The notes: generated by a model not told the origin, from the letters alone. Numbered from the whole stretch's first letter, positions 55,308 through 58,830 are shown. The stretch: 62,534 nucleotides of DNA, filler included, from Dugesia japonica (GCA_001938525.1; 6 parts of 6 records of this genome joined end to end with filler, not necessarily neighbours in it); one strand, 5' to 3'. Numbers and translations: made by a program.

Positions 55308-58300
55308 TACGTAGATTTTTAATTTAGTACCTGGCCAAACCCCATATATTTCACCGGAAATCTCATTTGGTCTGGTTCTATTACTTGGTTGCATTAGAGA
55401 ACTATATCGTCTTCCTGTAATAATGGTTGTATTTCGGTGTTGTTTACTCTTACGTTGTTTATTCATGAATCTTATAATCCTTTTACGCAATTTAGACCAT
55501 GGATCATTCATCTGAATCTGCCAATGAATTTCACTTTCGTCCGGAAATCTGATTATTATGGCTACTTCTTCATTTGTTATCATTCGAACTGCTTTATACA
55601 ATATTGCGTCCATTACTTCCTCTGGCATTCGGCTTATAGCTCGTAGCTGATTTAATTTCATGATTAGTTGTATGACTTTGTTATTTCTTAGCAGTTCCAA
55701 ATTTTCTTCAAGGGTTAGTAATATTTTCATTATTACTCGAGATAGACTTCCCCATGTTCTACTGTCTTCCCATATCTCGATATTTATCTCCATTGTCTTA
55801 TCGTTGACTACTTCGAATAGTTTGCTACTGTTGGTTTCTTGTTTGTATAAATCCTCTTATTGTTGTAGCACTTCCTCCATGGACTTCACTGGATCTAAGG
55901 TGTAGTCTTCCGGTTTCTGTATTTGGAGAAAGGTATTTTCGCCTGGCCTCAATCCCTATGTCCATTAAATGTTGTTTCCTTCAAATTTTATGGGGAATCT
56001 CAGATGGTTACTTGTGATTGTATATCCTTTTTGCTGGTCAGCTATATCCAATGATTCAATAATTTCCTGTAATTCTAAAGCCGATGTTCTGTTGAAATGA
56101 GGTTTCTTTCTGGGTTTTTTGTTCGGTGTCTGAGATTCTATATTGACATGAAAATCTTCTCCATTGGCGCTCGCTTTAACTGCACCAATATGTGGCTAGA
56201 GCACTGATTCCCATTTGTTGCGCTCTTCTTTTGCTACCTCGGTGTACTTCAACAAATCCATTAGCAAATTTAATGCCTTCCAAAATGTTGCCCTGGGTGT
56301 CCTTCCCAGAAAATAACAGATATCCGAAATTATCTTAGATATACGCTCTGCTTGAGGAGAAGTGAAAGGACCCGCGAATTCTTGTTTAAATGGTAACAAA
56401 CTGGGTTTGACTGTGTCTTCTGAGGTTTCTTCTTCCTCCTACTCCTTCTTCTCCTCTGAGGTTGGAACTGTGGCTTCGGGATCATTATTCCTAACCATGT
56501 TTACTTGTGCTTTATTTCTCTATAAGTATTTATCAGGTGCTCATTTTCCACAGGCAATATTTCTTGTATATATAAGCTCATCATGTTGAATATGAGTTGA
56601 TCTATATCAGGCATCTTTGTTATCGGAATATCTTTTGTCATTTTTCGCGGCGTTAGTTTGATTTCTGTAATCTCTCCTGGTTTAATATCATGTTGAAAGA
56701 TGTGATCCTCTTTCTTGGTTAGTATGATCATTGTTGCCCCCGCCTGCATTTTATATGGCTGACGTATTTTGTACTTCTTCTTCATATAAGTTCTTCTTTT
56801 TCAACTACTCCGCTCGGGCCCATAAGTAAAGTTGTCTATAAATAGCTAAATCTCATAGATTATTCATCATTTTCCAATACACTTTTAAATCCACTATCGG
56901 TCGGGTTTCTCGAGTTACTCTTAATAGGTCGTTGATTGCATGAAACGTGGTGGACTCTTCAGTTATTGGTTTGTGTAATTCATCCGAATATCACGTATCG
57001 TGGGGACCCTTCTGGAAATTTAACGGATTTGGTTGTAGTTATTGGTAGGTTGTCAATTTTTTGTAATTTCTGGTTTTCTTTTACCTGTTCCTTGATACCT
57101 GTCAATACTTTGGTCACGTATAATTCCTTTATTTCTTCCATTCGTTCCTCTAGATCGGGTGATTGGTCTGTCTGTGGCTACTCCTCTATATCTAATTCGC
57201 ATATTTCTCCCGGTTTAGCGTGGCATTGAAATATCTGTTTATCCTCTACATCTGTCTCAACCAATTTGCCGTTTATATACAGAGGTACCATGTTTAACTC
57301 GTTCTCTCGCCACCTATCGGTAACGGCATCCATCAAATCCATCATGGTTATTCCTTGCGGCTATACTTAGTCATTTCTTGTTCTTTTATGCCTATATTCA
57401 AATATAATTTATAGTCTTGTATTTTAGTAGATGCCAATATTTCCTCGGCATATCTCTGTTTAATCATGAGCCATTGATTCTCAATTTCTTCCGGTATTTC
57501 TATCCCATCGTATGTATTGTAATTCCTTTTCATGATCATCCCATTAGTTTCACGAGGTAACTTTTCCTTCTCTGCTTGTACTCTGTTAATCATTTCCTCC
57601 ACTTTGCACATCGCTACTACTTCCCTTGGCGGCATTTGCCGCATCCTTATCATGTTACATTTACCCTCTCTTCTCTCCAACCGTTGTTTGAGGAAATTGT
57701 TACGCGTTATCAATAACTGCTTCCTTTCCTCCTTTGTCAGTTTGTCTTTCTTTCCCAATACCGGGGAAAGTATCTTTATTTTAATAGGTTCTACTTTTTG
57801 TTTATATAAGTATTCCATTTTTCCCATGATTTCTAGTGCCGATCTTCCGGTTTTCGTTACCCATAATCATAGTCAATACCAGGGCGTTTGTCCAATATTA
57901 AAATTTCAATTTCTTCTCCTGGTTTTACCCCAAAGTCGTATAAATGGCTTTTTCTGACATTAAAATCCACTATAGCACTTGTAGTGCATATGAGCTTATC
58001 TGTTATACTTGGATAGCCCGCTTGATTAAGTGCTGATTCCAGAACTTCTACCATTAATCCCGTGAGCGTTAATTTCATATTTCCCTCTGGGTTGAACAGC
58101 CATACCTGGTAATCGGATAATATCATGTTGGATATTACCCAATCGTAATGTACTAGCAATCAATCTGTCAATTCGCTATCGAACTCGGTAACCAATTTTA
58201 TAACTTCCAATAACTCTACCAATCGATTAGTTAACTTTAGGTATACTTCCCTCCTAATTGTATAATGGAGTTTTTGGGCAGCTATTAGTATCTCGTCAAT

Positions 58301-58830
58301 TCGAGCTAACGATAATCGTGATAGTTTATTTTGTTCCACGTCCGGATAATCCATCAGTCTCATTTTTTCAAATCGTTTTCGCAGGTAGTTTTGAGACTTG
58401 GTAGGAACTATTTCTTTTAAAAATGTTTCTTCGAGATTATGATATAACTCGTCAGTTTCTATTTCTTGAATTACTATTTGTAGTCTAAATACCAAACCCC
58501 AGTTTATCAATTTAATTTATGTGGTTTCGTGGGGTCATGCCCCGTAGTAAATTAGATTTTTTTCATCTGGAAGAATGTTGATTCCTATATTACCTATTTG
58601 CAATCTATGCCGGTTCCACTTTTCATTCCATTGATGTTGATCGTTAAACGGTGGTAAATCGAAAAATGGCTTTACCATTATACCTTTGATACCGTCTACT
58701 TTTCCCCATTTTATTTCGTTAATGGCTTCTTTCAAGTGTCGTACTGTCAATCCCTTTGGGGATAGCTTTAATAGTTTCGGAATAATCTCGGGGTTATTAT
58801 GCCAGACGTATTGAATTTTGAATTCGTAAT
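55308..58830 (-). pseudogene. Array of about six ubiquitin-like (beta-grasp) repeats with helical spacers
   Basis: Recurring unit ends NLIYYGA*PHETT, LYDFGVKPGEEIEI, IFQCHAKPGEICEL, IFQHDIKPGEITEI, GLRPGENTFL, IYGVWPGTKLKI; helix starts PKGLTVRHLKEAI and PQGITMMDLMDAV; manual alignment to ubiquitin only. Confidence 0.6.

Follow-up and report, generated by a model that had tools for sequence, protein, structure and literature searches.

Which part of a retrotransposon takes the place of its protease when none can be detected there? An aspartic protease is regarded as belonging to the core equipment of Gypsy elements and retroviruses. In the 62,534-nucleotide stretch of Dugesia japonica DNA analysed here (the window), a minus-strand element carries an array with a predicted ubiquitin fold exactly at the place of the protease, which raises the questions of what cuts the polyprotein and what the units bind. 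The window is an A+T-rich, gap-ridden and repeat-rich eukaryotic scaffold. The element occupies its right end (54000-62534), with a G+C content of 0.34-0.38 compared with about 0.25 elsewhere, and is a decayed copy of a multi-copy retrotransposon of the Gypsy lineage. Its domain order on the minus strand is Gag, an insert of about 1,380 codons that was once coding, and then reverse transcriptase (RT); the insert reaches from the third CCHC knuckle to 55244, where homology to Pol begins. From the 5' end onwards, with the ubiquitin-like units numbered U1 to U6, the element consists of the following parts:

62254-62271, minus strand: putative primer-binding site at the 5' end, an 18-mer starting with TGG.
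61244-61907, minus strand: 5' leader with tandem repeats (a 140-nt unit present 2.3 times and units of 15-30 nt), at very high contig depth.
60331-60834, minus strand: Ser/Thr/Lys-rich open frame upstream of Gag.
59385-60318, minus strand: Gag (Retrotrans_gag and three CCHC-type knuckles), with stops and a frame break within the third knuckle (PF03732, E 2.4e-5; PF00098, E 1.5e-7).
58832-59038, minus strand: helical block before U1 (leave-one-out 12.5 bits, above all background; alignment A4).
58505-58828, minus strand: U1, ubiquitin-like unit carrying about 30 inserted residues and two stops (z 5.2 to U2, 4.5 to U4).
58112-58483, minus strand: helical block before U2, the last 75 or so residues a predicted three-helix bundle (generic bundle matches, Z 7.2-8.6).
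57890-58111, minus strand: U2, predicted beta-grasp (ubiquitin-like) domain, stop-free (structure models and Foldseek).
57420-57848, minus strand: helical block before U3 (leave-one-out 13.1 bits).
57181-57419, minus strand: U3, split by a frame break (leave-one-out 14.9 bits for the C-terminal part).
56770-57174, minus strand: helical block before U4, its frame broken near 56975 (leave-one-out 6.1 bits; other copies differ there).
56654-56761, minus strand: U4, C-terminal half only in the window copy (leave-one-out 17.7 bits; period 177 codons versus 204-244).
56160-56647, minus strand: helical block before U5, containing a frame break and acidic low-complexity sequence (leave-one-out 14.8 bits).
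55919-56156, minus strand: U5, divergent unit with two stops (leave-one-out 5.1 bits, just over a background of 3.5).
55566-55910, minus strand: helical block before U6, the first helix alone resembling the other blocks.
55304-55565, minus strand: U6, doubtful unit at the expected protease place, neither a clear member nor protease-like.
54120-55244, minus strand: pre-RT linker, RT and the start of RNase H (RVT_1, E 5.3e-26; RT_RNaseH_2, E 2e-6).

Gag is recognized by its capsid-type domain and its CCHC knuckles, with both PF03732 and PF00098 above cut-off, and the Ser/Thr/Lys-rich frame at 60331-60834, which is without a meaningful Pfam match, is possibly an N-terminal extension of Gag. The 18-mer at 62254-62271 presumably resembles the 3' end of tRNA-Pro; the 5' LTR would extend past the end of the window. 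RNase H follows directly after a Gypsy-type RT, and no integrase lies ahead of RT. A search with the RT region returned 110 long RT-RNase H polyproteins of Gypsy type (E ≤ 1e-20) at 27-38% identity, none of them close. Judged by its RT, the element would be filed under the Gypsy lineage and not as a canonical autonomous member of Ty3/Gypsy. Its 3' half is absent: the break lies at the start of RNase H, the element being truncated at about 54100, and no continuation was found in the window left of about 54000-54100. At 54000-54100 its end borders on an assembly gap and on a short stretch rich in G+C. Gaps of 44 N, 12 bases and 44 N are present at 53866-53965 and at four other places (9678, 20308, 32368 and 42385), and the 12 bases at 53910 form a palindrome with a stop in all frames that is likely an artificial assembly linker. 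Rfam gave no match.

The window also holds a decayed canonical Gypsy on the plus strand (22037-26100) with Gag, protease (22750-23046), RT, RNase H and an integrase-type region, which served as a positive control; its RT shares about 40-50% protein identity with that of the studied element. A third Gypsy pol fragment lies at 13000-14700 (plus strand). The cluster at 321-6184, with PolB-like minus-strand frames and an ATPase-like frame at 617-1159, resembles the remains of a Polinton/Maverick; the protease profile introduced below matches a retroviral-type protease at 456-644 within this cluster. The fragment at 17304-18357 (plus strand) resembles a non-LTR RT and that at 43577-44002 (plus strand) a mariner-type transposase. 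At 32550-33705 (minus strand), one long frame encodes a divergent ABC-F-type ATPase with a very short N-terminus (ABC_tran, ABC_tran_Xtn); it is interrupted by an assembly gap.

Did the insert once belong to the coding sequence of the element? An earlier, sequence-only reading had described a collinear broken coding region with six ubiquitin-like units, and all six stretches that it quoted for these units were recovered on the minus strand at the positions given, in the interval from the Gag knuckles to RT. The coding character is borne out by the stop density: a reading path of six single-frame pieces, hand-chosen to avoid stops, carries 18 stops in 1,402 codons, compared with 243 in 2,796 codons off the path in the other minus-strand frames. 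Two pieces of 514 and 423 codons carry this result alone (9 stops versus 50 and 38, and 5 versus 37 and 32, respectively), and the stop rate of the path is the same as in Gag (3 in 281 codons) and RT (4 in 260). The frame that encodes the last cysteine of the third knuckle runs on into the insert, and at the other end, where linker and RT are in frame with U5-U6, the frame is open and stop-free from the block before U6 into RT, so that a single polyprotein most likely comprised Gag, insert and RT. The 21 listed sites at which this copy differs from other copies are spread 8/9/4 over the codon positions without a third-position excess, as expected for private decay; this spread says nothing on selection.

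The insert is a tandem array, in which the repeat is a larger module made of a helical block and a ubiquitin-like unit; the modules number five or six. They are 177-244 codons long with periods of 204, 236, 177, 244 and 204 codons, and the 177-codon period belongs to U4, of which the first half is absent in the window copy. Shuffle p-values of ≤ 0.004 were obtained for 5 of the 15 unit pairs, all among U1-U4, and only about 0.02 for U2-U5 and U2-U6; 3 of 36 spacer pairs had p ≤ 0.01. In leave-one-out HMMs, with unit boundaries set by eye and scored against a six-frame translation of the whole window, the omitted piece ranked above all background in four of six tests for the C-terminal halves (U2-U5) and in five of six for the N-terminal blocks (U1-U5). 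For the C-terminal half of U1, four background matches scored higher, the best of them another helix of the array. U6 failed both tests against this background; it matches the unit profile over a C-terminal motif of 12 residues only, and 2 of 60 shuffles score as high. The UBX-like character proposed for it in the earlier reading is tentative. A short helix after each unit was also considered as part of the module and dropped, being top in only one of five leave-one-out tests. On the basis of these comparisons U1-U5 can be regarded as related to one another. The six related units of the sequence-only reading reduce to four full ones and half of U4, with U6 doubtful. It had also taken the unit by itself as the repeat. 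The units do repeat, but each has in addition a helical half that had gone unnoticed (N-terminal blocks in 5 of 6 tests), and the first strand of U5 aligns better at about 56156 than at the VKASAN stretch.

Compared within the array, the modules have no likeness at the DNA level, which implies that the amplification is old. As the array has nevertheless decayed just like Gag and RT, it points to a long upkeep at the protein level. This bears on the explanation that the array has no host partner and is either a structural spacer or a passenger that is tolerated, its frame staying open only for the sake of the RT downstream. Any in-frame insert upstream of RT would be selected against stops, and the units are very divergent and without a family match; however, fold-defining motifs persist in five modules without DNA likeness and a useless 4-kb insert should shrink via in-frame deletion, and we consider a mere spacer improbable.

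The fold of the units was approached through U2, the one unit covered by fold models (pLDDT 60-64); U1, U3, U4 and U5 are tied to it by sequence relatedness, that is, by shuffles and leave-one-out profiles. A template-free model from a 6-row alignment of the window units reached pLDDT 60 in one of five models, and its best 10 Foldseek matches all belonged to the ubiquitin family, with weak E-values (≥ 0.09) and a best Z of 5.7. When the helical block was modelled together with U2 from a 7-row alignment, pLDDT was 64, with four of five models above 50, and the full ubiquitin order of strand-strand-helix-strand-strand-helix-strand was obtained. Foldseek matched this second model to ISG15 and to ubiquitin and its variants at E 0.006-0.03, no match reaching E 0.001; nine of the top 10 were ubiquitin-family chains and the tenth was a 76-residue chain of a deubiquitinase complex. 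An exhaustive structural alignment placed 32 of 50 matches on U2, the best being FAT10 (Z 8.3, rmsd 2.3, 73 aligned), and 16 of 50 on the helical block before it; the latter were unrelated three-helix bundles (Z 7.2-8.6), a kind of match that the alignment tool notes as common. Viral structures matching the U2 model were mostly ubiquitin-like domains, including those of pestivirus polyproteins. Identity between the units and the matched chains is mostly about 10% and at most 23%. U2 is thus predicted with moderate confidence to adopt a beta-grasp (ubiquitin-like) fold.

The ubiquitin-like pattern that had been recognized in the units is upheld for U2 by the model (Foldseek E 0.006; Z 8.3) but not by Pfam, which found no family on any array unit; curated ubiquitin-like families (Pfam ubiquitin, Rad60-SLD, UBX) gave no match at E ≤ 5-10. 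PDB sequence searches with the units returned nothing below E 0.04: four irrelevant matches for alignment A1, none for U6, and three weak ones for alignment A4, including 2daf_A, which we take to be a ubiquitin-like domain, at E 0.5 on the C-terminal motif of the unit. Alignments A2 and A3 were poor and were left out of folding. A BAG identity of the helical block is unsupported beyond the generic bundle: Pfam BAG gave no match, and 5aqf_B, presumably a BAG1 chain, ranks 24th against the block before U2 (Z 7.7), tied with unrelated bundles. Neither a Ddi1 helical domain nor a death fold is among the 50 fold matches listed, which is weak as an exclusion. The absence of a terminal diglycine, already noted in the earlier reading, was confirmed after the last strand of all six units and supports units that are probably integral and not conjugatable.

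For U1-U2 of the array, no homologue was found among long proteins or among 1.84 billion representative proteins; the single match in the latter set (P0003) is a leucine-rich-repeat protein and a chance match. Gag likewise had no homologue among long proteins. Searches of metagenome contigs with the U6 frame and of viral contigs with the U2 frame gave no match, the ESM Atlas held nothing for the U6 and pre-U3 frames, and none of the 110 related polyproteins was matched by the unit profile.

Is the array a peculiarity of this copy? Seven runs from three studies contain 20-42% of the sampled words of the element, and no RNA run is among those listed. Four of the 24 listed runs were aligned to the element, two of DNA type (as contigs) and two of RNA. 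The DNA-type runs, from two studies, yielded 27,032 and 29,654 contigs, mostly 80-95% alike, that cover all 30 bins. These contigs are short and show no linkage over long distances. Their summed depth, which is not a copy number, amounts to 1,057-11,247 and 1,828-18,822 over the 14 array bins and to a similar 5,606-12,478 and 10,335-23,061 over the Gag bins. Single listed contigs have depths of 6-30, with up to 64 contigs per site on the array. Since the array depth is Gag-like and far above that of single contigs, a one-off insertion, against which the sequence-only reading had cautioned, is refuted, and the array belongs to a multi-copy family. That the pattern arose by chance, misassembly or a one-off insertion is already largely refuted and extremely improbable. 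Piece boundaries drawn by eye, the gapped assembly and the failure of U6 in both profile tests could be held in its favour, but all 14 array bins are covered in two DNA-type runs at Gag-like depth and by up to 64 contigs per site, the stop density is coding-like, and template-free models give the ubiquitin fold. The earlier proposal of a captured ubiquitin-fold module amplified in a Gag-Pol frame therefore stands with respect to the U2 model, the U1-U5 profiles and the further copies, but not with respect to six full units; the engagement of the proteasome, p97 or chaperones that it suggested is a conjecture.

The RT bins are about 30-fold deeper than the array bins, which shows that close RT relatives abound. 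The 5' leader repeats (61125-61973) approach RT in contig depth and greatly exceed Gag and the array, which suggests that a large clade shares leader and RT but not the Gag or the array of the window element. Near 56973 and 59617, letters present in other copies are missing from the window copy, which therefore has private deletions. In the two RNA runs, of which about 6% and 25% were read, 46 and 82 reads aligned, nearly all on RT and under 95% alike; no reads fell on 14 of 14 and 13 of 14 array bins, respectively.

No aspartic protease motif occurs on the reading path between Gag and RT. A protease HMM built from 76 of the 110 related polyproteins detects the protease of the neighbouring Gypsy (43.9 bits) and a second one (17.5 bits), whereas no match in 54000-62534 exceeds 0 bits. 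The expectation that the insert sits beside a protease, as in a standard Gypsy, had to be abandoned, as none is detectable by motif or by the profile with its working positive control. With the pre-RT linker common to both elements as the reference point, the neighbour's protease would end at about 55280, compared with 55304 for U6. The array occupies all of the interval between Gag and linker, its last unit stopping no more than about 25 nt from where a protease should end. We rejected the idea that U6 is a decayed protease: 33 of 60 shuffles score as high, whereas the neighbour's protease reaches a probability of 97.5. The N gap at 54997-55046 (50 N, in RT) spans about one base in 13 and 16 contigs and hence hides no protease. 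By these sequence criteria, a protease is undetectable in the window copy. Its loss may be family-wide, but the window copy, having other deletions, may also have lost it privately.

An ordinary self-processing Gypsy, in which the array is cargo as in the planarian Burro elements and the protease was lost only in the window copy or its subfamily, is conceivable, though we think it rather unlikely. It would fit the other deletions of the window copy (half of U4; near 56973 and 59617) and the protease motif found before RT in 83 of the 110 long related polyproteins, and Burro keeps its protease beside a Ubi2/SUMO-like domain, according to excerpts of PMC6431247. It fits less well with the stop-free frame from the block before U6 into RT. 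Also, the listed joints and loose ends include none at 55250-55320, a weak point given that a further 472 joints and 3,823 loose ends lie outside the listing.

Alternatively, the array could replace the protease by mimicking a ubiquitin chain and recruiting Ddi1/DDI2, p97 or the proteasome, the last with partial degradation, to free RT. The way in which the array fills the Gag-to-linker interval, up to about 25 nt from the expected protease end, would agree with this, as would two precedents, each taken from excerpts: Ddi1 cleaves only substrates with long ubiquitin chains (PMC7149228), and ubiquitin inserts are processing signals in pestivirus polyproteins (PMC8310069). Yet diglycine follows none of the six units, which argues against cleavage by hydrolases, Ddi1 requires more than about eight true ubiquitins, and the units, which helical blocks keep apart, share mostly about 10% (maximally 23%) identity with the matched chains. 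Recruitment of this kind appears unlikely to us. A retrotransposon lineage might have dropped its retroviral-type protease and left the processing of Gag-Pol to the host ubiquitin machinery through a pseudo-polyubiquitin array; this idea, too, we hold to be hardly probable. If it were true, it would mean protease-free maturation of an LTR element.

We prefer, with a probability of roughly 40%, a reading in which the array replaced the protease, the integral units dock factors of the host ubiquitin-proteasome system, and a sister family supplies in trans the protease that releases RT. A host fragment would have been captured at the Gag-protease junction, amplified long ago, and would then have taken the place of the protease. 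Its integral units may act as non-conjugated handles or decoys that steer the degradation or unfolding of Gag-Pol by the host, and processing in trans could come from the far more abundant relatives with similar RT. Docking and trans-cleavage would be consistent with the protein-level conservation, the position of the array, the abundance of RT relatives and, in the excerpted PMC10076021, the control of a Gag-Pol by a proteasome shuttle that restrains it. The protease-bearing Gypsy at 22037-26100 counts for processing in trans. Against the preferred reading stand the moderate confidence of models that concern one unit, the blank Pfam, PDB-sequence and homologue searches, the other deletions and the missing 3' half of the window copy, the shortness of the contigs and the near absence of RNA reads on the array. 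Even if the protease is missing only in some copies, a tandem helical-plus-ubiquitin module without a homologue would be a new retrotransposon cargo, and the array opens a way to study how mobile elements clash with the protein degradation of their host.

How does this element compare with known systems? The sequence-only reading knew of no described Gypsy with such an architecture. A tandem ubiquitin-like array in an LTR element was indeed not found in the literature, in a search that lay outside the original Burro papers, Repbase and Dfam, but Burro1/GYPSM1 has one Ubi2/SUMO-like domain between Gag and protease in excerpts of PMC6431247 (see also PMC13465017, likewise excerpted). As excerpted in PMC6431247, Burro1/GYPSM1 also encodes a single polyprotein in which retrotrans_gag and three CCHC knuckles come first, followed ahead of Pol by host-type domains that include Ubi2/SUMO-like PF11976. 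It differs in that this domain occurs once, alongside MATH, BIR, ankyrin, BCL2 and Env-like regions, and in retaining protease and dUTPase. Relative to this description of Burro, the window element has its module repeated five to six times and is without a detectable protease; Pfam, with limited sensitivity on decayed pieces, detected none of MATH, BIR, ankyrin, BCL2, Env or PF11976 in it.

Cytopathic pestiviruses, in excerpts of PMC8310069, likewise have a ubiquitin fold within a polyprotein, in place of the element's own processing step. Their inserts are near-native ubiquitin cut by host hydrolases, whereas the window units are highly diverged, repeated and without diglycine. Ddi1 is a retroviral-like protease, and Ddi1/DDI2 similarly combine a UBL beside a helical domain with a retroviral-protease context (PMC7149228, excerpts); in contrast, the window element has no protease domain, and no Ddi1 helical domain is among its listed fold matches. 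Captured enzyme domains in Gypsy elements, AlkB (PMC9289625) and DNA methyltransferases (PMC5890265), both as excerpted, are also host domains fixed within an LTR-retrotransposon polyprotein, but those domains are enzymatic, unlike the non-catalytic tandem array found here where a protease would be. That a Gypsy polyprotein can carry a ubiquitin-like domain is therefore known; what is new, as far as our searches reached, is a tandem array of ubiquitin-like modules in the position of the protease.
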